Position numbers and translations under genes: made by a program. A DNA stretch of 22,505 bases from a virus. Lineage: Duplodnaviria; Heunggongvirae; Uroviricota; Caudoviricetes. The stretch lies in the IMG/VR virus record IMGVR_UViG_2681813269_000007. One strand, given 5' to 3'. Under the pieces are notes generated by a model. The model saw only the letters and a program-made list of their open reading frames with translations. It was not told the origin of the DNA and did not search any database. Position 1 is the stretch's first letter. The number at the start of each line of letters is the position of its first letter. Below, piece after piece: positions 1,320-21,871 of this stretch.

Positions 1320-1901
1320 GTGAACATGGATTTTAGAATGACTGAACAACCACGGACCATAAAAATTTATAATCTGCTGGCCGGAACTAATGAATTTATT
1401 GGTGAAGGTGACGCATATATTCCGCCTCATACAGGCCTGCCAGCAAACAGTACCGATATTGCACCGCCAGATATTCCGGCTGGCTTCGTGGCTGTTTTCA
1501 ACAGTGATGAGGCATCGTGGCATCTCGTTGAAGACCATCGGGGAAAAACCGTCTATGACGTGGCTTCCGGCGACGCGTTATTTATTTCTGAACTTGGCCC
1601 ATTACCGGAAAATGTCACCTGGTTATCCCCGGAAGGGGAGTTTCAGAAGTGGAACGGCACAGCCTGGGTGAAGGATACGGAAGCAGAAAAACTGTTCCGG
1701 ATCCGGGAGGCGGAAGAAACAAAAAACAACCTGATGCAGGTAGCCAGTGAGCATATTGCGCCGCTTCAGGATGCTGCAGATCTGGAAATTGCAACGGAGG
1801 AAGAAAACTCGTTGCTGGAAGCCTGGAAGAAGTATCGGGTGTTGCTGAACCGTGTTGATACATCACTATCTCCAGATATCGAGTGGCCAAGTCAACCATA
1901 A
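1320..1901 (+). CDS. tfa: Tail fibre assembly protein (Tfa family)
   Basis: 193-aa ORF with AGAGGTGA RBS. C-terminus ...[22 protein letters not shown] is the conserved Tfa / P2 gpG-type signature. Sits directly downstream of the tail fibre region. Confidence 0.85.
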
Positions 1902-1933: not shown

Positions 1934-2899
1934 TTAATTATCAGTAGATTGTTCCTCTAGTAACAACTCAATTCTGCTTAGTATTTCTTTAGATATTTTG
2001 CGGCTATCAATTTTTATAGTTACAAAATTACCTTTATATCTAGCCGTGATCCCTTCCCCATATTTTTTCTCGTCTTTTGTTTTTTCCTCGTCGCCAACCA
2101 GAACAGAGTCAGATAATATTTGTATAATCCGTGAAGCTTCTAAATCCTCGCCGTTTTTTTTAATTGCCAGAAGATGATGAGCAGCATTGCTCATGGCAGC
2201 CATGTTTTTTTTGTAAACCTTAAACAAAGAATCTCCAGCACGAGCTGACAGTTCTCCTGGATGATTGAAGATAGCTAATATATCTTTTGGTAGACCAGCT
2301 GTATTAATACAGCGAGTGATAATATTTCTATCTATATTTTCAGCCTCGGCTAATGCTTTAACGTTACCATCAAAGTCATTTAGCTTGCGTAAGTATCTCT
2401 TTCCTCTTTCGTATGCACTAATAGGCCTATAATCGTTACCAATTTGGGATAACCAATGCATCTGTTCATCGTCGAGATCACCAATTAAGACGCGATAGTC
2501 ACATCCTGTTAATATCGCTGCTTTTCTTCTACGTGAGCCGTCAGCGACTTCAACGATTCCAGATACTTTTCTGGCGAAAGCTGGATTTTGTTGTCCAGAC
2601 GTTAGAAAAGATGGGATTAAATCGGCTAGAGAGGATTCATTTAATAAATCTTGATCGCGTTCATTACCTAGCCATACCATTGTTGCCATTTCAACTTTAT
2701 CTGCGGGAATTGTCTCTAACTTAAAGTTAACATTACGTCCGCATACTGGCAAAGTTATGCTGTTACCGGTTAATGAACTCAGTTGACGTTTTAAATCACC
2801 AACCATAGGTGATACGGGCTGATGTTCAGGGGCATGATGATTATTACTCATAATGCGATTAATATCTGGAGCATTTTTTAGAAGAGAGCGCTGTTTCAT
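1934..2899 (-). CDS. sopB: Partition protein SopB (ParB family, centromere-binding)
   Basis: 321-aa ORF colinear with F-plasmid SopB as I recall it (ITLPVCGR, WxGNERDQ, DLIPSF, PAFxRxVSG, IADGSRRRKAA, DYRVLxGxLDDEQM, GNDYRPxSAYERG, CINTAxLPK, HPGELSAR). Start overlaps the sopA stop. Confidence 0.9.
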   Translation of the reverse strand: MKQRSLLKNAPDINRIMSNNHHAPEHQPVSPMVGDLKRQLSSLTGNSITLPVCGRNVNFKLETIPADKVEMATMVWLGNERDQDLLNESSLADLIPSFLTSGQQNPAFARKVSGIVEVADGSRRRKAAILTGCDYRVLIGDLDDEQMHWLSQIGNDYRPISAYERGKRYLRKLNDFDGNVKALAEAENIDRNIITRCINTAGLPKDILAIFNHPGELSARAGDSLFKVYKKNMAAMSNAAHHLLAIKKNGEDLEASRIIQILSDSVLVGDEEKTKDEKKYGEGITARYKGNFVTIKIDSRKISKEILSRIELLLEEQSTDN

Positions 2900-4065
2900 T
2901 ATTCGTTCTCCCAGCGAGGTTTTATTAGATCATCAAAAATTTCTCGGCAAACAGGGTCCCATATAGAAACAGCATTTCTCCATGCATTCAATGTTGAACG
3001 TTGGTTTGCTGCTTGTTCAAATACTGTTCTCATTTTTATCTGGCCTTTACCTACTTCATCGGTAACGCGTACAACCTGACGTAATACCATTGATCCCCAT
3101 GTATTTCTTATTTGTTCTTCCATCCATCGTGATTGATTCCCTGTAGTGAGACTATATTTAGTCAGAAGTAAGCGAACGGTTGGCTCAAATCCACCTAGGT
3201 CAACGCTTTCCAATAGATCGAGAAGCATTGTGAAAAACTGTAGAACAGAAGCGTAATCAAATAATTCTGCAGGTGTAGCAACAACAATAACGTCAGCGGC
3301 ACAAACAACGTTAATGGTTCCTGTACCGAGGTTCGGAGCACTATCTATAACGATAACATCGTAGTTATCCCAAACTGATTCAATAGCTGCGCGCAGCATA
3401 AGGTGTGGAGGATGAGGCAATTTACCCTGAGCATGATATTGCATGAGATCTGTTTCTATACGATGTAAAGCTAGGCAGCTAGGGATAATGTCTAGCCCAG
3501 GCCAACATGTTGGCTTTATAGCATATTCAGCGTTATCGCGTTCTCCTAAGTAAAATGGCAGTAAAGTATCCTCGGCATGGATATGTAAATCAGGAACATA
3601 ACCGTGATACATAGAGGCCGTGCCTTGAGGATCGTTACCTTCAACCAAAAGAACACGATGACCTTGTAATGCTAACCATTGAGCTTGATGTACCGCAGAC
3701 GATGTTTTATAAACGCCGCCTTTGTGTGACATAACGGCAAGCGCAACAGGGTTTTTATCTTGTGGTCGTTGGTTTGGGTTGCCAAAAACTGCTCGCATAC
3801 TGTTGATTTGATCTATGGTATAACCAGCACGACGTTCAATTCTTCCTCTCATTTCAAAGTCAGGTGCAGGTAAACGCCCGCTCTTCTCAGCATCTCTAAT
3901 TGCTTGAGGAGTTACACCAATTAAATCTGCTACTTCAGTTATACCCCATCGGCGGGTGATACGCCGAGCTTCAGGACTATCATCACCGAATTGAGCGATA
4001 GCAATTGCTTTGGTCATTTCTTGACCTCTCGTAACACAATCTTGCAATAACTTTTTCAAAGACAT
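2899..4065 (-). CDS. sopA: Partition ATPase SopA (ParA family, type Ia with N-terminal HTH extension)
   Basis: 388-aa ORF with GGAGATGA RBS. Deviant Walker A KGGVYKTS, a long N-terminal extension, and the same length as F SopA. Transcribed divergently from telN. Confidence 0.9.
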   Translation of the reverse strand: MSLKKLLQDCVTRGQEMTKAIAIAQFGDDSPEARRITRRWGITEVADLIGVTPQAIRDAEKSGRLPAPDFEMRGRIERRAGYTIDQINSMRAVFGNPNQRPQDKNPVALAVMSHKGGVYKTSSAVHQAQWLALQGHRVLLVEGNDPQGTASMYHGYVPDLHIHAEDTLLPFYLGERDNAEYAIKPTCWPGLDIIPSCLALHRIETDLMQYHAQGKLPHPPHLMLRAAIESVWDNYDVIVIDSAPNLGTGTINVVCAADVIVVATPAELFDYASVLQFFTMLLDLLESVDLGGFEPTVRLLLTKYSLTTGNQSRWMEEQIRNTWGSMVLRQVVRVTDEVGKGQIKMRTVFEQAANQRSTLNAWRNAVSIWDPVCREIFDDLIKPRWENE

Positions 4066-4500: not shown

Positions 4501-4542
4501 ACATAATCACCCATTATACGCGCGTATAATGGGGAATTATGT
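4501..4542. other. telRL / telO telomere-resolution site (protelomerase target palindrome)
   Basis: ACATAATCACCCATTATACGCGCGTATAATGGGGAATTATGT has dyad symmetry centred between 4521 and 4522. The central 24 bp (4510-4533) are a perfect palindrome containing TACGCGCGTA; two mismatched pairs separate it from 7-bp matched outer arms. It lies between sopA and telN, as in N15. Confidence 0.85.
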
Positions 4543-7810: not shown

Positions 7811-8137
7811 GCAGCCACCTCGCGCACCGGAATACGGGCAGACAATACCAGGACAAACCGGCTGGCGAACTGGCGACGAGCTTCCCGTTCAGATGACGCG
7901 ATAGTGGAAAGATGATGAATGTGGGACTTTTTGTCTGTGCGAACGACTGCCGCAAATTTGAATTTGAACATGGTATGCACTCCGTTTTATTGGTCGTGCT
8001 ACCTCCAGAGTTGCGAATCTCTTTATTGGTGGTAGCCCAGGCGGGGTTCGCAATACCGGTAAACGAAGAAACCGGCCCGACCGAAGTCAGCCCCACCTGA
8101 GCCACCATAATTCGGATATGCGCAGGTCTATACACAT

Positions 8138-8213
8138 AAAAAAACACGCTGGCGCGTGTTGTGCGCTTCGTTTTGCCAGGATTGCGAAGTCCCGACTGCG
8201 GGATTTACCGCAG
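8138..8213 (-). ncRNA. Candidate small regulatory RNA (c4/cA-like) upstream of the antirepressor operon
   Basis: On the minus strand: -35 TTGACG (8250-8245), -10 TAAAGT (8226-8221), then about 75 nt ending in an intrinsic terminator (ACACGC-GCCA-GCGTGT plus U7, 8159-8138). The predicted RNA has a 5' hairpin CUGCGG-UAAAUC-CCGCAG. No convincing ORF in the region. Confidence 0.3.
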
Positions 8214-8263
8214 CGAGGTGACTTTACCTCCAAAACGACGCACACGTCAATAATTTGCAAAGA

Positions 8264-10166: not shown

Positions 10167-13100
10167 TTACCCATAGAAAGCGCCCTGCTCTTCGTAGCTG
10201 CATGGGCTATTCCCGGTAATGTATTCACGTAACCGCCGCAGTTCATTGCTGGATAAGTGATCCATGAACTCTGTGAGGTACAGAGATGCAAACGTCATAG
10301 CTATGCTGGCTGATGACCATGATGACATAGTGGCCAGCTCCTCACCGGAAAGCGCACTCATCGCCCAGGACTCAGGTACAACCACTGGCAACACAGCCAA
10401 AGCCTCAGAAATTACTGAATGAGGGGCGTTTTGAACCTGCTCGTTTGTGGATCGCGTTTTATCATCCATATATATATTGAGATCCAAATCGCGATCCATT
10501 TCGATGGCGGTCTTCTCGGCTTTACGCGTTTTCAGGGTTAGGCCATCTTTCTGACGCTGAGCAAGAATATCCAGCATAAATGCCGCTGATTCAGGCTCAA
10601 CAAAACGCAAGGTTGGACGCTTATCGCCGTCTCTGCCGCGACGTTTACCTGTTTTAAGGCCAAGAGAGTCGCAAATGTTTTTAAACAACGCTTCCGGCAC
10701 TTTAGGCTTCCCTTTTGGCGTCATAAAACCACCAATGTGCAGAACGTTATTCAACAGGTCACGGCGTTCGGCTGTCATGAGGTTATCTCGAGCAAATTTG
10801 AGACGCTCCTGAGTCGCCTCGCCGGTCATAGTCTCAGGGTTGATACCGCAGTCGATAAAGTACTGCCGGAGAGTTGCTGATTTAAGCGCATAGAAACCGC
10901 GCGCCCCGACTTCAACAGTAGGAGTAGCTTTTACCTTGTGATCGATTATTCCAGGGAATTTAGTTTTAAAGACATCATCAGCCTGCTCGCGAGTCATCGC
11001 GGTCACTACAAAATATTGCCACTGTCCCGCCTGACGGTATGCGTAGGTAAAATTGATGGCTGCTTCTTCCCGGTCGTAACGACGAGCTGTTACCTCATCT
11101 AAAAGCATTGTTTCATAGCGGCGAACTTTGTCTCGAGCACCATCGAAATAGAATTTCAGCGTGCCTTCTTCAACCGGTAGTTTCAGTTCGTTTTCAATAT
11201 CCCAGCGGACAAGTTTTGCCTGTTCTTCAAGCGTCAGCGCGCGTTTTTTTAGCAGTTCTTCACGCTCTGATTCTTGTGGAGTTTCTGTATTGAGATGCAG
11301 ATCCAGTGTCTGTTCCCACACAATATCCCGCGCTTCTTTACGCAGCTCTTTACCGATATCATTCGCAGCATAATCGGTGGCCAGCGGCGATACCTTATAA
11401 CCGTCGCTGTGCATGATGCAGATCATGTTGCTGGCGTAGTCGTTACGCGCAGTCGCTTCAATAGCGGCTGCTTTAATTTTCATCCTGGTAAAGTCGGTAT
11501 TGGCCACCCCCATTGATATACGGTCGCCATCGAAAACGACATCCGTCAGTTCACCGTTCATACCTGCGGTAGCAAGCAATGCCTGGGCGAATGCTCGTTC
11601 TATTTTTTGCGGGTCAGTTTCACGTTTTGCACGAGCTTTATCAAAGCCGATAATAAATTCTTTTGCTGTACGGTCGCGGCGTAGCATTTGCACTGCGTCG
11701 CTGGGTACAACTTCACCACAGAACATGCCGAAATGACGGTCAAAATGTTTTTGCTCAATCGACACGCCGGATGAAATAGACGGGCTATAAATCAGGCCGT
11801 CGTATTTTTTGACCATCTTTTTCGGTTGATTGGTAAATGCTTCAACTTCTGGCTCTGGTTTGTTTTTCTGGTTTACACACAGAAATTTCTTACCAGGAAA
11901 ATGCATTCTCAGGGTGGCTGTCACATCTTCTGCAAAGGTGGAGCTGTCGGTGGCCAACATGATTTTTTCGCCATCCGATACAGCTTTCACCACCTCGGTC
12001 ATGATGCGATCTTTTTCTGTATAAAAAACCCGGATTGGCTCACCTGTTTCGCGGTTGCGAACATCAACAGGTAATTCAATTACGTGGATCTGCAGCCATG
12101 CCGGTAAACCTAGTTCTTCACGGCGTTTCATAGCCAGTTCAGCCAGGTCAACCAGCAGATCGTTCGCATCAGCATCCACCATGATTGGGTGTTGTTCCGT
12201 TCTGGCCAGCGCGTCAATTAGCGTATTGAATACAGCCACCGGGTTTTCCATAGCCCGACCGGAAAGAACGGCACGTAGCCCTTGTGTGGCCTCGTCAAAG
12301 CCAAAATAGTCGTGCTGGCGCATCAACGGTTGCCAGCAGTTTTTAACAATCGAGTTTATGCAGATGGTCAGTTTACTGGCGTATGGAGCCATTTCCTGAT
12401 AGCCAGGGTCCTGATAGTGCAGGATATCGGCTTTTACACCTTTTCCTTCTGTCATCATTTCCCACAGGCCACCAATAAGGGAGACACGGTGAGCAACAGA
12501 GATACCACGTTCTGAGCTATGCATTAATGGTCGTAACAATCCTGTAGATTTGCCGGAACCCATACCAGCACGGACGATGACTATCCCTTGTAGTGATTGC
12601 ACGTACTTCAGGACATCATCGGTCATTACCGAAGTTTCAAAACGCTTATAGGTGATATGTTGAGGGCGTTTATTGGGATCAGTTATGCGTTCGCTGAAAG
12701 AGCGCGGAGCCTGGGCAATACGGCACTTTTTATTCAGGCGACGGGCAATGTGGTCTTTTACCGTAGCGCGATAGATATTTTCCAGTCCCATTTCACGCAG
12801 AACGATGCAGAACATGTTAAATAAATCTGACGGACTGTTAGGAACCGGACAGGTTAGCATGCCTATATCCACCGCTCTCAGCAGCTCTTTGGCAAAAGTA
12901 CGACGGTTATCCCGCTTAATTGTCTTCAGGCGGTTGAGCGTCAGAGATAGCAAATCAGTACCGGTTTTCAGGCGGTTTGCTGTTGTAAATAGTTGACGTG
13001 CGGTTTCACGAAGTCCACGTAGTTTGTGCAGGTCGTTGAAGTCACTGCACTCCATTTGCGGATCGTCTTCAAAAGTTGGATAGACGCAGCGGACATCGTT

Positions 13101-14162
13101 GAATTTCGATAAGATTTCATAGCCAGTCCGCAGGCCGGTATTCCCTTTTCCTTCTGTGGCAGATTTCCGGTCATTATCCAGTGCGCAGGTGATTTTTGCC
13201 GCCGGGTACATGTTTACCAGTTGTTCCACAACATGAACCATGTTGTTAGCGGATACAGCGACAACCACAGCGTCAAAGCGTTTATATTTTTTCGTGGCAA
13301 GCCAGATGGATGCACCAGTAGCAAAACCTTCTGTAACAGCGATGTTTTGCGCCCCTTTCAGCTCACCGATAACAAAGCAGGCACCGACGAAATCGCCGCT
13401 GGTTACTGCGCTGGTCTGGTATTTCCCACCTTGTTTGTCGATTCGCTGCCAACCCACAATACGACCATCGTAACGACCGTCCAGGTGAGCCAGAGGGATA
13501 GCCATATATGTGGTTGGCCCCCGGCTCCATTTCGCACTGTCGTGACTGGTCACGCGACGCACATCACATGAACTAAAAACGTCACGAATACCTTTTTTAA
13601 TCGCATATGGCCATGAGCCGTCTTCAGCCGGAGCATGTTCCCACGCGCTGTGGAATGCCAGCCATCCCAGCAAACGTTCATGGTCCATTTGGTTGTTTTT
13701 CAGGTCATTAATTCGTTTTTGTTCTTCACGGCGACGACGTGCTTCGGCCTGACGTTCTATTCTTTCCCGTTCTTCTTCCGGTTGTGCGACCACGGTCGCA
13801 TTATTCCGTTGTTGCTCACGGCGATATTCAGAAAACAGGAAGGAGAAACCGCTCCATGAGCCAGCATCGCTGCCTTTATGGACGAAGTTAATGAACGGGT
13901 AATCAATCCCTTTGCTGTGTTCCAGCCGGGAGTAAATTTCTACGCGTCCTTTCAGGCTCTTTTCGAGAGCTTCTGGAGATGTTTTATTGTATGAAGAGTA
14001 ACGCTCAACTCCCCCGCGAGGGTTGAGTTGGATGTTGTCGGAACAGGCAGGCCAGTTGATACCAGCCATCTGTGCCAGCTCGGTTAGTTCATCCCGTGCT
14101 GCTTCAATTAGCGAGAACGGATCGCTGCCAAAGCGATCCGCATAGAAATCGTTTAATGTCAT
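10167..14162 (-). CDS. repA: Replication protein RepA (multidomain primase-helicase)
   Basis: 1331-aa ORF, close to the roughly 1324 aa I recall for N15 RepA. Walker A GMGSGKST in the central helicase region. Same orientation and position relative to cB as in N15. Confidence 0.92.
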   Translation of the reverse strand: MTLNDFYADRFGSDPFSLIEAARDELTELAQMAGINWPACSDNIQLNPRGGVERYSSYNKTSPEALEKSLKGRVEIYSRLEHSKGIDYPFINFVHKGSDAGSWSGFSFLFSEYRREQQRNNATVVAQPEEERERIERQAEARRRREEQKRINDLKNNQMDHERLLGWLAFHSAWEHAPAEDGSWPYAIKKGIRDVFSSCDVRRVTSHDSAKWSRGPTTYMAIPLAHLDGRYDGRIVGWQRIDKQGGKYQTSAVTSGDFVGACFVIGELKGAQNIAVTEGFATGASIWLATKKYKRFDAVVVAVSANNMVHVVEQLVNMYPAAKITCALDNDRKSATEGKGNTGLRTGYEILSKFNDVRCVYPTFEDDPQMECSDFNDLHKLRGLRETARQLFTTANRLKTGTDLLSLTLNRLKTIKRDNRRTFAKELLRAVDIGMLTCPVPNSPSDLFNMFCIVLREMGLENIYRATVKDHIARRLNKKCRIAQAPRSFSERITDPNKRPQHITYKRFETSVMTDDVLKYVQSLQGIVIVRAGMGSGKSTGLLRPLMHSSERGISVAHRVSLIGGLWEMMTEGKGVKADILHYQDPGYQEMAPYASKLTICINSIVKNCWQPLMRQHDYFGFDEATQGLRAVLSGRAMENPVAVFNTLIDALARTEQHPIMVDADANDLLVDLAELAMKRREELGLPAWLQIHVIELPVDVRNRETGEPIRVFYTEKDRIMTEVVKAVSDGEKIMLATDSSTFAEDVTATLRMHFPGKKFLCVNQKNKPEPEVEAFTNQPKKMVKKYDGLIYSPSISSGVSIEQKHFDRHFGMFCGEVVPSDAVQMLRRDRTAKEFIIGFDKARAKRETDPQKIERAFAQALLATAGMNGELTDVVFDGDRISMGVANTDFTRMKIKAAAIEATARNDYASNMICIMHSDGYKVSPLATDYAANDIGKELRKEARDIVWEQTLDLHLNTETPQESEREELLKKRALTLEEQAKLVRWDIENELKLPVEEGTLKFYFDGARDKVRRYETMLLDEVTARRYDREEAAINFTYAYRQAGQWQYFVVTAMTREQADDVFKTKFPGIIDHKVKATPTVEVGARGFYALKSATLRQYFIDCGINPETMTGEATQERLKFARDNLMTAERRDLLNNVLHIGGFMTPKGKPKVPEALFKNICDSLGLKTGKRRGRDGDKRPTLRFVEPESAAFMLDILAQRQKDGLTLKTRKAEKTAIEMDRDLDLNIYMDDKTRSTNEQVQNAPHSVISEALAVLPVVVPESWAMSALSGEELATMSSWSSASIAMTFASLYLTEFMDHLSSNELRRLREYITGNSPCSYEEQGAFYG
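13783..13802. other. sopC-like centromere palindrome, copy 1 (inside repA coding sequence)
   Basis: TGTGCGACC-AC-GGTCGCATT. Positions 13785-13800 (TGCGACC-AC-GGTCGCA) are a perfect 7+2+7 inverted repeat with the same GACC-AC-GGTC core as the F sopC SopB-binding site. Confidence 0.6.
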
Positions 14163-14407: not shown

Positions 14408-15004
14408 TCATCTACCCTCAACCATGAATGATTTGATCGTTCCGACTATTTGGTGAACAAATTCAAGATCGCTTTTCCTGAAGATGGCTCGTTGTGAGTT
14501 TGTTCCATCCAGATAGTAATTTTCATCATCAAAACGGGCCAGGCGCTGGATAGTGATATTTCCTGCAGTATCACGAACCAGAACATCCTCGCCGGGGACC
14601 AGTTCCAGCGCAGAATCGACCAGGAGAAAATCGCCTGGCTGATAGTTTCCCTGCGTAAGATTGCTGATAGTTAACGCATACACAGTATTGCGCTGGCTGA
14701 TGAATGGCAGGAATCGCTCAGTATTTGGAACCTGTCCCGGCTTCCATTCTTCATCAGGCCCACTTTCAGTTGTGCCAATAATAGGAATGCGATCAGGGTC
14801 ATATTCTGTCCCATATAGCACCCAATGCACTGGCTTGCGTAAGCACTTAGCCAGGGCAATACCTATCTCCAGTGACGGCATTACGTCGCCACGTTCTAAG
14901 TTTTGGACGCCTGCTATAGAGATATCGACAGCCTCAGCAACTTCTCGCAACGTCAGCTTCATCTCTAAACGGCGTGCTTTCAGTCGTTCGCCTCGTGTTT
15001 TCAT
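14408..15004 (-). CDS. cB: Prophage repressor CB (CI-like, N-terminal HTH, C-terminal S24-like domain)
   Basis: 198-aa ORF with an XRE-type HTH (LTLREVAEAVDISIAGVQNLERG) and a LexA/CI-like C-terminal fold (GDFLLVD ... ITIQRL). Divergent from cro across an operator region. Confidence 0.85.
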   Translation of the reverse strand: MKTRGERLKARRLEMKLTLREVAEAVDISIAGVQNLERGDVMPSLEIGIALAKCLRKPVHWVLYGTEYDPDRIPIIGTTESGPDEEWKPGQVPNTERFLPFISQRNTVYALTISNLTQGNYQPGDFLLVDSALELVPGEDVLVRDTAGNITIQRLARFDDENYYLDGTNSQRAIFRKSDLEFVHQIVGTIKSFMVEGR

Positions 15005-15095: not shown

Positions 15096-15317
15096 ATGAA
15101 ACCAGAAGAACTTATTCGCCACTTTGGCAGTGTTGAAAAAGCAGCGGCAGGGGTAGGTGTAACACCCGGAGCTGTTTACCAATGGTTAACCGCTGGAGAG
15201 ATTCCTTCATTGCGGCAAAGCGATATTGAAGTTCGTACTGCTTACAAGCTGAAGAGTGACTTTACAACTCGGCGGGTAAAGCAGTCGATTAAGGAGAGTC
15301 GTAAGCGTGGAGCTTGA
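15096..15317 (+). CDS. cro: Cro-like repressor
   Basis: 73 aa from ATG 15096 (MKPEELIRHFGSVEKAAAGVGVTPGAVYQWL..., an HTH). The ORF track extends to a TTG at 15069 that lies inside the operator, so the shorter start is preferred. Confidence 0.7.
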   Translation: MKPEELIRHFGSVEKAAAGVGVTPGAVYQWLTAGEIPSLRQSDIEVRTAYKLKSDFTTRRVKQSIKESRKRGA

Positions 15318-16017
15318 GTATATACGCAGCTGCGTCTCTACGGCATTGGCTGATGTTCATTATCGCCAGCGTGGCATTCTGGAGGTCCAGCTTGAGCAGA
15401 TGCGTCTCGGTAGATCAGGACGGTTTAACAATAAACCAGTCCGGTCAATCAGTGTGGGGGATGATAACTCATACGAAGTGTCCGTTCCCGCTGAGCCGGT
15501 TAGATTCCACCAAGGGAAAACATTTAAACAATCATCAATATTGCTCACTGATATTGATTTTCAGAGCGCCAGCTGGCGCAGGGCTATTGGTCAGTTGAAT
15601 AACGAGGAATCAGCCTGGCTTTATTATTGCTACGGATGCAAGCCTGACTACAACAATGATGTGATTGTTTGTCAGTGGTTATGGCTTGATTTTCTGGTTG
15701 CTCATTCTGGGGGCGGCTTTAAAAAAATGAAGGCCTCCACGAAAAAAGCCATGCGGAAATTGATTTATTACGCGGCACAGCAGGTTAAATCAGAACTTAC
15801 GTGTGCTGAGGCAGTTGATGAGAGAGAACAGGACAGGCATCTGAGTTTTCTACTGAATATATCTATTGATAGCTGGAGACAAGATTATAAAGAACGCTGG
15901 CTTTTAATTAAGTCGCGATGTCTGAGCTTAAATCGAACCGCATTATTAAATGCGGCGGAGAAGCGCAGTGAAATCATCAAACGCCATCGGGCAGGAAGTG
16001 CCATTCTGCCTTTGTAA
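15307..16017 (+). CDS. Hypothetical protein in the position of a Q-like late antiterminator
   Basis: 236-aa ORF with GTG start and AAGGAG RBS, overlapping the cro 3' end. Function inferred from gene order only. Confidence 0.35.
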   Translation: MELEYIRSCVSTALADVHYRQRGILEVQLEQMRLGRSGRFNNKPVRSISVGDDNSYEVSVPAEPVRFHQGKTFKQSSILLTDIDFQSASWRRAIGQLNNEESAWLYYCYGCKPDYNNDVIVCQWLWLDFLVAHSGGGFKKMKASTKKAMRKLIYYAAQQVKSELTCAEAVDEREQDRHLSFLLNISIDSWRQDYKERWLLIKSRCLSLNRTALLNAAEKRSEIIKRHRAGSAILPL

Positions 16018-16022
16018 ACAAG

Positions 16023-16270
16023 TTATGTTCAGGAAACCGTCGAAGCCAGAATTAAGGTATTCGGGGGTAAGAAATGAATATGTTATCTGGTGTCCAACTT
16101 GTGGTTACAGGACACGACCAGATAGTAATAAGCAGTCTGTAATTGCCGATTGGTATTTATCAAATCAGCCAGGTAATAAGCATATAGAAAATCTTTGGAT
16201 TAAGCGTTACTTGGAAATCAGCGAGGGTGCGACCACGGTCGCACAAGAAAATGAAAATAACGCCATTTAA
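16023..16270 (+). CDS. Small zinc-ribbon protein (possible Lar-type restriction-alleviation protein)
   Basis: 82 aa from ATG 16023 with a CPTCG motif in YVIWCPTCGYRTRPD. No clear RBS; the start is uncertain and the ORF track offers an alternative at 15950. Confidence 0.35.
16227..16244. other. sopC-like centromere palindrome, copy 2
   Basis: GTGCGACC-AC-GGTCGCAC, a perfect 8+2+8 inverted repeat at the junction of two small ORFs. Confidence 0.6.
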
Positions 16271-20299: not shown

Positions 20300-20527
20300 A
20301 TGAATATTAATGAAATTCGTGGAAATATGACTGAAGCGGCCCTGAGTGTGGAATGTGTTATGCGTGGATACCCACGCATTTCCCTGAAAGAGTTAAGCGA
20401 AGCCTGTTTTTTGAGTCAAGCTGCCGTTGAATTTATCATCGAACAGATGATCTGTTTTGGGGTTGCAAAGCGTAGCGGATCTGGTCGATATTCTTTGACC
20501 GATGAATATAAGCAGGCAACTTTCTAA
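20300..20527 (+). CDS. Hypothetical small protein (possible DNA-binding)
   Basis: 75-aa ORF with AGAGAGG RBS. Confidence 0.6.
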   Translation: MNINEIRGNMTEAALSVECVMRGYPRISLKELSEACFLSQAAVEFIIEQMICFGVAKRSGSGRYSLTDEYKQATF

Positions 20528-20530
20528 AAG

Positions 20531-20552
20531 CTGTGCGACCACGGTCGCACAG
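20531..20552. other. sopC-like centromere palindrome, copy 3 (longest perfect copy)
   Basis: CTGTGCGACC-AC-GGTCGCACAG, a perfect 10+2+10 inverted repeat starting 4 nt after the stop of the preceding gene. Confidence 0.65.
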
Positions 20553-20635
20553 CACAAAAACGAAAAAGCTTGGCAAAATGACGGTTTTTAGTTATTGTTT
20601 TGTTAAGTTGGGTTTTTTGTACCCAACAGCCAACA

Positions 20636-20659
20636 AGCCGCCTTTATGGCGGTTTTTTT
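20636..20659 (+). terminator. Intrinsic terminator downstream of the small-gene block
   Basis: GCCGCC-tttat-GGCGG followed by T7. Confidence 0.5.
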
Positions 20660-20794
20660 GTGCCTGAAAAGTGGGCGCAGGACAAGTTGCAGCTTGTCCT
20701 GCGGTCAACCCATGCCAGAGCTATAGGCTGAACCTAAAGCCCACCCGCGATGCGCATCGCCGGGTTAGCTTACCCAGGCAAAAAAATAATAGCT

Positions 20795-21871
20795 ATGTTC
20801 AAAACCACTAATATTCATGGCGCACAACTCGTTTGCGCAGATTCTCTGCAATTTATCAAAACCATCCCTGATAACTCGGTCAATTTGATTGCAACAGACC
20901 CACCATACTTCGGCGTAAAGGCTAACGCATGGGATAACCAGTGGGATAGCGATGCTGACTTTTTGGGGTGGATTGACGAATTTTTGGCAGAATTTTGGCG
21001 GATATTGGCCCCTAATGGCAGCCTGTATATGTTTACCGGCTCTCGCCTTGCGTCAAAAATTGAATTATTAACTCGCGACCGTTTCAATGTTCTGAACCAT
21101 ATCATTTGGGCTAAACCCAGTGGTATGTGGCGCGGTTGTCATAAAGAAAGTTTAAGGGCTTATTTTCCTGCTACTGAAAGAATATTATTTGCAGAGCATT
21201 ACGGCGCGTCAGGTTATGCTAAAGGTCAGTCAGGTTATGCTTCAAAATGTGCAGATTTAAGAAAAAATATTTTTTCTCCACTAATTGATGCTTTTTCGCT
21301 GGCTCGCCGTCAGTTAGATATATCAGCCGCAGACATTAATTCAGCGACAGGAAAGCAGATGTGTTCACACTGGTTTTCTTATTCGCAGTGGCGGCTTCCA
21401 TCATTAATTGATTTTAATAAACTATGCGAATTATTTCGCAGGAAGGCAGATTCACTCGGTGTCCCGTGTCCATATCCTTTTAATGTTGATTATTCAGAAC
21501 ATGAAAAGCGTTATAGCGATCTGAAATTGCATTATGAGGAAGTAAAGAAGCAGTATGATGATTTGAAGGCTCAGTATGAAAATTTACGCCGTCCATTTCA
21601 TGTTACTGCTGATGTACCTTATACCGATGTATGGGAGTTTCCTCCTGTGCAATATTATCCTGGCAAGCACCCATGTGAAAAACCTGCAGCGATGATGGAA
21701 CATATTATAAAGAGTAGTTCACGCCCCGGAGATATCGTTGCCGATTTCTTTATGGGATCAGGCTCAACTATTAAAGCTGCGCTGAAGTTAGGACGTCAGG
21801 CAATAGGTATTGAGATTGAGGGCGAACGTTATCTTCAGACAGTTGATGAAGTGAAAAAGTTATTTGAGTAA
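20795..21871 (+). CDS. DNA methyltransferase (amino-MTase, DPPY motif before FxGxG motif)
   Basis: ORF open from 20750; ATG 20795 is preferred because the 20750 ATG sits inside a palindrome. IATDPPY near the N-terminus and FFMGSGST near the C-terminus. No adjacent endonuclease is visible. Confidence 0.8.
   Translation: MFKTTNIHGAQLVCADSLQFIKTIPDNSVNLIATDPPYFGVKANAWDNQWDSDADFLGWIDEFLAEFWRILAPNGSLYMFTGSRLASKIELLTRDRFNVLNHIIWAKPSGMWRGCHKESLRAYFPATERILFAEHYGASGYAKGQSGYASKCADLRKNIFSPLIDAFSLARRQLDISAADINSATGKQMCSHWFSYSQWRLPSLIDFNKLCELFRRKADSLGVPCPYPFNVDYSEHEKRYSDLKLHYEEVKKQYDDLKAQYENLRRPFHVTADVPYTDVWEFPPVQYYPGKHPCEKPAAMMEHIIKSSSRPGDIVADFFMGSGSTIKAALKLGRQAIGIEIEGERYLQTVDEVKKLFE

Follow-up and report, generated by a model that had tools for sequence, protein, structure and literature searches.

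The described systems closest to the locus analysed here are the centromeres of the F plasmid and of phage N15. F sopC is an array of 10 to 12 tandem 43-bp repeats at one locus next to sopB; its site has the sequence TGGGACCACGGTCCCA (PMC3597684). The SopB proteins of N15 and F recognise centromeres that differ at one nucleotide per half-site (PMC2910045), and oligonucleotides for the natural N15 centromere inverted repeats, IR1 to IR4, have been given by the Lane laboratory (PMC7205306, Table 4). For the dispersed repeats of N15, the cited literature establishes a function as partition centromere sites. Four core copies are found in the N15 genome, one within repA (33480), one past Q (35931), one directly behind gene 51 (41125) and a fourth at 45562. 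A 2008 study by Ravin, Rech and Lane connects, by its title, Sop of N15 with the expression of late genes, and the system reportedly facilitates Q-dependent late gene expression. A related arrangement is found in RK2/IncP plasmids, in which the ParB-family protein KorB serves both partition and transcription control from scattered palindromic OB operators, several of which are located just upstream of promoters. However, KorB is a repressor that acts with the partners KorA and TrbA, whereas a positive effect has been published for N15, and a Q antiterminator adds a further gate at the promoter; also, the OB operators have no sequence similarity to SopB sites.

We analysed a stretch of 22,505 nucleotides from a virus of the Caudoviricetes (IMG/VR record IMGVR_UViG_2681813269_000007), which is called the window in the following. 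Its gene order and its sequence relatives identify it as an N15-like linear phage-plasmid of E. coli. In a megablast search against phage records, the whole window was 96.8% identical to Escherichia phage PhiR46_1 and likewise near-identical to YDC107_1, and N15, phiKO2 and other linear plasmid-prophages matched with about 75% identity. Genes are arranged as in N15: first come the tail fibre genes, next the minus-strand sopB and sopA, then the telomere-resolution palindrome and the protelomerase gene, followed by the antirepressor region, the gene for a 1331-aa RepA, cB, cro, Q, a block of small genes, the methylase and the holin. sopB (1934-2899, minus strand) encodes a ParB-family centromere-binding protein (Pfam SoPB_HTH, E value of 7e-25) that is 73% identical to N15 SopB, and sopA (2899-4065, minus strand), syntenic with N15 gene 28, encodes a ParA-type partition ATPase with AAA_31 and CbiA/ParA domains. 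The Q antiterminator gene (15307-16017, plus strand; Pfam Phage_antiter_Q, PF06323, E value of 2e-83) is syntenic with N15 gene 40, and its product presumably acts at the late promoter. Further downstream are a gp51-like small ORF of 75 aa (20300-20527, plus strand), whose relatives are annotated as winged-helix proteins, and the gene for an N6-adenine DNA methylase (20795-21871, plus strand; Pfam N6_N4_Mtase), which is the first gene of the late operon and is followed by the holin and lysis genes. In the complete relative, holin, lysozyme, Rz and terminase genes lie downstream of the late module.

The inverted repeat between the gp51-like ORF and the methylase gene occupies positions 20530-20553 and reads GCTGTGCGACC-AC-GGTCGCACAGC. 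The inverted-repeat search gave two arms of 11 nt each (20530-20540 and 20543-20553) that are 100% complementary and separated by the dinucleotide AC. A preliminary description of this DNA had reported a 22-bp perfect inverted repeat at 20531-20552. This repeat is real and sits inside 20530-20553, but the arms are longer and the AC centre is asymmetric; since AC is not self-complementary, the reverse strand matches with two mismatches and the element is not a perfect palindrome. The distance to the upstream gene had been read correctly: the 75-aa ORF stops with TAA at 20525-20527, 2 nt before 20530, and the 22-mer begins at the fourth base past TAA, the full repeat at the third. The 16-bp core, TGCGACCACGGTCGCA, is located at 20534-20549 and is identical in all three copies present in the window. 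The second copy (13785-13800) is inside repA and the third (16228-16243) about 210 bp downstream of the Q gene; these have arms of only 7 and 8 bp, so that the copy at 20530-20553 is indeed the longest, as the preliminary description had stated. A scan with the 18-bp core pattern GTGCGACCNNGGTCGCAC, allowing up to three mismatches, gave three matches in the window (13784, 16227 and 20533) versus 0.02 expected from 100 shuffles, and 0 of the 100 shuffles gave three matches. An F-type core was not found in the window, and 20530-20553 is a single copy without tandem 43-bp repeats; an F-type sopC tandem centromere was ruled out on these grounds.

The core matches the 16-bp inverted repeat TGCGACC-NN-GGTCGCA of N15 exactly and is identical to the sites within the N15 IR1 to IR4 oligonucleotides (PMC7205306), of which the IR3 oligonucleotide is the N15 site at 41125 plus its flanks. 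In comparison to F sopC, TGCGACCACGGTCGCA deviates from TGGGACCACGGTCCCA by one base per half-site, which is exactly the relation between N15 and F. The three window copies at 13785, 16228 and 20534 are dispersed rather than arranged in a tandem array, and they are syntenic with N15 IR1, IR2 and IR3, respectively. The flanks of N15 IR1 (ttcttcttccgg...ccattccgttg) are the same as those of the copy at 13785, the copy after Q corresponds to IR2, which in N15 lies 184 bp after gene 40, and the copy at 20534 has the IR3-type position between gene 51 and the late promoter, according to an alignment of ten relatives and the annotations of N15 and phiKO2. Core, synteny and copies together identify the palindrome at 20530-20553, from its sequence, as a predicted SopB centromere site of the N15 type and the ortholog of N15 IR3. 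This type of element is already described for N15 and phiKO2, and the locus is another example of it, with nothing new for the phage family in that respect.

N15 IR3 (NC_001901, 41125-41140) has the same 16-bp core except for its centre, which is AT instead of the AC of the window, and it is likewise located a few bases past the gene 51 stop. The distance from the site to the TTGGCA -35 hexamer is 21 bp in N15 and 20 bp in the window, and both have the same terminator, downstream leader and methylase and the same dispersed layout (repA, after Q, late promoter). The arms of IR3 are shorter (9 bp, CGTGCGACC/GGTCGCACG, versus 11 bp), the surroundings are only about 75% identical, and N15 has four sites, whereas the closest complete relative of the window, PhiR46_1, has five core copies, two of them past the end of the window. 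The site of the Klebsiella phage phiKO2 (AY374448, 45384-45401), upstream of the gene 52 late promoter, shares core, order of elements and spacing class with the window; its leader hairpin stems differ in sequence and are, hence, a source of the covariation described below. With F sopC, the window site shares the protein family, the 16-bp inverted-repeat architecture, the AC centre and 14 of 16 bases of the core. In contrast to the F array at a single locus, the window has single sites spread over more than 7 kb that adjoin regulatory elements, and the two systems differ by the one base per half-site and by the recognition helix of SopB (SRK versus DRN). The site after Q has AC at its centre in the window (16228-16243) but GT in PhiR46_1 (10375-10390), and the centres of N15 sites are AC, TC and AT. 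Since AC and GT are found in relatives that are 97% identical, the central dinucleotide appears free to flip or vary.

If the palindrome is bound by SopB, the recognition helix of the protein should fit the site. The SopB encoded in the window matches the crystal structures of F SopB, and the DNA-contacting arginines of F SopB are kept, including the arginine of LSAR that is equivalent to R219. Its recognition helix is ENIDRNIITRCIN; this helix, IDRNIITRC, has the D-R-N of the N15 type, unlike the S-R-K of F and of the Yersinia phage PY54, and the site and its cognate sopAB are thus found on the same replicon. I-D-R-N-I is common to the SopB proteins of N15 and the window and I-S-R-K-I to those of F and PY54. 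DRN goes with TGCGACC sites (N15 and the window) and SRK with TGGGACC sites (F and PY54). Indeed, PY54 has eight F-type sites (TGGGACC..GGTCCCA) and zero N15-type sites, and the window, N15 and PhiR46_1 have N15-type sites only. Moreover, phages with the F-type SopB residues (SRK) have F-type sites at the same position. The helix of SopB and the class of the site change together, which is the behaviour expected of a true protein/site pair.

Directly downstream of the palindrome, between the site and the -35 hexamer, lies an A-rich tract, ACAAAAACGAAAAAG (20554-20568, plus strand), which resembles an UP element and might function as one; its AAAAA run was invariant in the ten-relative alignment. 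The tract is followed by a late sigma-70 promoter (20570-20598, plus strand) that was detected by a promoter scan and is conserved. It has the -35 hexamer TTGGCA (20570-20575), a spacer of 17 bp and the -10 hexamer TATTGT (20593-20598) and is located 20 bp downstream of the palindrome. This promoter between palindrome and terminator had been overlooked in the first reading of the sequence, yet it is the key neighbour of the site. At the predicted transcription start, the alignment revealed the invariant element TAAGTTGGG (20604-20612, plus strand), which contains a second -10-like hexamer (TAAGTT). TAAGTTGGG was conserved in 10 of 10 divergent relatives (with the G at the ninth base in nine of them) and in nearly all of about 50 loci and, by analogy to lambda pR', may be a sigma-dependent pause or Q-loading element. 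An intrinsic terminator (20635-20660, plus strand), the counterpart of lambda tR', was found by a terminator scan, by folding and in the annotations of N15 and phiKO2; the predicted leader transcript ended by it is about 55 nt long. The GenBank record of N15 has -35, -10 and terminator at homologous places, and that of phiKO2 has there a "putative plasmid partitioning site," a "putative late promoter" and a terminator. The preliminary description had already postulated a terminator after the palindrome, which corresponds to the terminator-like hairpin with a T-run at 20635-20660, and two further palindromes upstream of the methylase, which we recovered as inverted repeats at 20676-20703 and 20744-20763, before the ATG at 20795. 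Its view of the region as a regulatory and partition hub rather than spacer DNA also agrees with our data: the palindrome precedes a conserved late promoter and terminator at constant spacing, and the core is exact to published N15 sites, has the synteny of N15 IR3 and is accompanied by its cognate sopAB in the window.

With a sigma-70 promoter and an intrinsic terminator within about 100 nt, lysis and morphogenesis genes downstream and a Q gene, the module downstream of the palindrome is similar to pR'-tR' of lambda and would, by this analogy, be controlled by Q. Lambda pR'-qut-tR' has the same constitutive sigma-70 promoter, -10-like start element and near terminator, with Q upstream and the genes for lysis and morphogenesis downstream. 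The window differs from lambda in its Q, which belongs to Pfam PF06323, in the SopB site upstream and in a structured leader of about 130 nt downstream. The terminated late RNA of lambda is about 194 nt long, compared to the 55 nt predicted here. A hairpin, GTTGGGT/ACCCAAC, was also observed at 20607-20627, within the initial 25 nt of the predicted late RNA, and a comparable stem, with plus-strand G.U pairs, could be read off the alignment in the N15 and phiKO2 relatives. This hairpin may be part of a pause or antitermination signal. Our literature searches returned no relevant description of the late promoter or the leader in telomere phages.

To what extent the position of the site is kept was analysed with an alignment of 10 divergent relatives from Escherichia, Enterobacter, Citrobacter, Klebsiella and Yersinia. 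From E. coli to Yersinia, the order was the same: gp51 stop, SopB site, A-rich tract, -35/-10, TAAGTTGG, terminator, leader of about 130 nt and methylase ATG. In this alignment the -10 pattern T-A-x-x-x-T was preserved and the terminator GGCGGTTTTTTTRTGCCT was invariant, as was the ATG at 20795, which is also invariant in the leader alignment. The core was invariant among relatives that are only about 72 to 77% identical over gp51, the spacer and the methylase start. A pattern scan of IMG/VR for the junction of terminator and leader yielded 67 loci, and nearly all complete ones had an upstream SopB-type site. From these loci and the relatives collected earlier, 49 full-length unique sequences were used to determine spacing. 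The distance from the core to TAAGTTGG was measured automatically in 43 of the 49, and four more had the same arrangement by eye. The distance was 69 to 71 bp in 33 unique sequences (32 of the N15 type and one with a one-base core mismatch) and 58 to 59 bp in 10 unique sequences of the F type. The two classes are 11 bp, i.e., one helical turn, apart, and thus, seen from the promoter, the site keeps the same helical face in both. There were two exceptions: an IMG/VR contig (L048) has an IS insertion in place of site and promoter, and in another sequence (L012) an F-type site is displaced further upstream. Therefore, the coupling of site and promoter is not absolutely required for persistence of the element. 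In Klebsiella phage 020009 (L010), two SopB sites 47 bp apart are present at about 905-985, upstream of the late promoter.

Sequence identity, copy number, synteny, the cognate protein, co-variation of helix and site and positional conservation were observed directly, and with these data at hand it is very probable that the palindrome is a dispersed centromere (parS-type) site of an N15-like linear plasmid prophage that also acts on the late promoter. From them we infer that SopB binds and spreads, that the site functions in partition, and in which direction and by what mechanism the promoter is affected. In the proposed mechanism, a dimer of the phage's own SopB would recognise the 16-bp core through its helix-turn-helix and nucleate a larger complex on the flanking DNA. 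The repA copy, the copy after Q and, in complete relatives, two more beyond the lysis genes would join it in one partition complex, which SopA would position so that each daughter cell inherits the prophage. The centre of the site is about 31 bp away from the centre of the -35 hexamer, at roughly -64, and has a fixed helical phase to the late promoter; from this upstream position, a bound SopB complex would likely modulate Q-controlled late transcription. The promoter would be constitutive, the -10-like start element probably sets a sigma-dependent pause for Q loading, and the terminator would then act as the gate. The preserved helical phase suggests a direct, face-dependent contact of the partition complex with RNA polymerase or Q. 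If this were true, the locus would be a convenient natural system for promoter modulation by ParB-type proteins.

The effect on the promoter could also have the opposite sign. ParB-type complexes elsewhere silence neighbouring promoters, and silencing of flanking genes by ParB-family proteins is established, e.g., for P1 ParB and F SopB, as is repression by RK2 KorB; therefore, the effect here could be repression and not facilitation. SopB would then spread from its site over the late promoter and curb leaky transcription of the lysis genes in the lysogen. The location of the site immediately upstream of the A-tract and the -35 hexamer would fit, and positional conservation suits either sign of regulation. 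However, the only experimental study of the orthologous N15 system reports, by its title, facilitation, and the promoter already has a gate in the terminator, which needs Q. Thus, silencing is a possibility to be taken seriously but not the probable one.

That the palindrome acts as an RNA hairpin, either as terminator or stabiliser of the gp50-gp51 transcript or, with UUUU, as a leftward terminator, is very unlikely. It begins 3 nt past the gp51 stop, forms, on both strands, a stem of 10 bp with about -20 kcal/mol and is followed on the minus strand by UUUUAGAAAG; moreover, N15 IR4 is annotated as a putative terminator. But the tail on the plus strand is A-rich, not T-rich, the terminator scan called neither strand, and the minus strand has merely UUUU, followed by AGAAAG, a U-run that is absent from N15 and the closest relatives. 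Without a plus-strand U-run and without conservation of the one on the minus strand, a terminator was rejected as the main function. Also, no minus-strand sigma-70 promoter, which might likewise serve an antisense leader RNA, was found up to 420 bp to the right of the terminator in 51 unique relatives, and a hairpin function leaves the same core inside repA and the co-variation with the SopB helix unexplained. These two features also bear on the idea that the palindrome is the operator of another regulator of the late promoter, such as gp51. It adjoins the gp51-like gene, which in relatives is annotated as winged helix-turn-helix or PhiH1 repressor-like, and a position upstream of a promoter suits an operator. 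However, a sub-threshold PCI match was the only Pfam result for gp51, the core is identical to the experimentally used SopB sites of N15 and is also present at two loci unrelated to gp51, and the class of the site switches along with the recognition helix of SopB, which makes such an operator highly improbable. A chance feature of spacer DNA, finally, has nothing in its favour apart from the fact that short palindromes are common; it is refuted by the shuffles, none of which gave three matches, and by the invariance of the core in relatives of about 72 to 77% identity, and its probability is negligible.

The reading as a SopB site docked on the late promoter has consequences beyond this phage. 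The arrangement known from N15, with centromere sites dispersed beside control elements and one placed at the late promoter, holds across the whole group of enterobacterial telomere phages and is kept even where SopB and site have switched their specificity to the F type. The site merits annotation as a partition site in the widespread plasmid-prophages of E. coli. Modestly new are the co-variation of helix and site, the spacing classes that preserve helical phase and the structured leader; the rest mostly confirms existing knowledge.

The leader of about 130 nt (20664-20795) extends from the late terminator to the methylase ATG and is conserved in N15-, phiKO2- and PY54-like phages. It contains the two downstream palindromes. 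The first is a hairpin, H1 (20676-20703), with an 11-bp stem and a 6-nt loop that covaries across relatives; the second, H3 (20744-20764), was found by the inverted-repeat search and by folding, has a GCGC loop and one bulged base and is enclosed by a helix, P3 (AAGC/GCTT, 20737-20771), seen in the alignment and in folding. That these palindromes are additional SopB sites was considered and rejected, since they share no core with the SopB site and the substitutions in their stems are compensatory; instead of being centromere-like, they form covarying hairpins within the conserved leader. Covariation was analysed with 22 unique leader sequences aligned with MAFFT. The outer six pairs of H1, P3 and two pairs of H3 were 95% paired, compared to 23 to 44% when the partner columns were slid, and compensatory changes were found at five pairs. 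When single sequences were folded, H1 and H3 formed at the homologous place in every relative, with stems of different sequence. RNAalifold recovered only the outer parts of the helices from the leader alignment because the N15 and phiKO2 groups have stems of different length and bulges at different positions; therefore, only pairs in register were counted and each sequence was folded separately. A search of the whole window against Rfam 15 at gathering thresholds assigned neither the palindrome nor the short late transcript nor the leader to a family, and the best sub-threshold E values for 20480-20860 were 0.012 to 0.02, for unrelated families.

The oppositions in H1 that are not Watson-Crick pairs were all C.A or A.C on the plus strand, in seven distinct combinations of position and state, with no G.T. 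On the minus strand these correspond to G.U, and the stem of a minus-strand RNA would be uninterrupted in 21 of the 22 sequences. The leader is the sole nearby stretch with negative GC skew; the flanking plus-strand genes are G-rich and the leader is C-rich, and thus a regional mutational bias does not explain the strand asymmetry of H1, although a local mutational bias may be behind it. In our own reading of the sequences, another candidate helix of the leader, UGGG/CCCA, has G.U pairs on the plus strand, opposite to the pattern of H1, and the functional strand of the leader could therefore be either one. That the late operon has in this leader a new regulatory RNA, perhaps a leftward antisense RNA with the SopB palindrome and UUUU as its terminator, is doubtful; if so, the centromere site would have a role in both DNA and RNA, as a third layer of the hub.

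Annotation of this region differs between records. In PhiR46_1, a "hypothetical protein" CDS (14790-14951) corresponds to 20570-20731 of the window and would run across late promoter, terminator and H1; since relatives differ there by single-base indels, it is probably spurious. Also, the start codons of the methylase are annotated inconsistently. The methylase of PhiR46_1 (14970) starts at an ATG inside H3 (window position 20750), and for N15 gene 52, the annotated start (41621) comes 233 nt after the ATG shared by all relatives (window position 20795) and, judging from the DNA sequences as we read them, also after the DPPY motif.

A few observations were made elsewhere in the window. A 42-bp palindrome with the core TATACGCGCGTATA is located at 4501-4542, between sopA and the protelomerase gene, and is the telomere resolution site, telRL; the record of PhiR46_1 begins with an annotated 22-bp telL, and the homolog of the protelomerase gene follows about 200 bp further downstream. 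In the antirepressor region, a C4 antisense RNA (8025-8112, minus strand, 82 bits) and isrK (8139-8214, minus strand, 53 bits) were matched side by side at the Rfam gathering level, which fits the published finding that a small processed RNA controls the antirepressor of N15. Finally, a full-length Rfam match to IS009 RNA (220 bits) was found at 1669-1867 (plus strand) inside a 193-aa ORF (1320-1901), and in relatives this stretch is annotated as tail fibre assembly genes.
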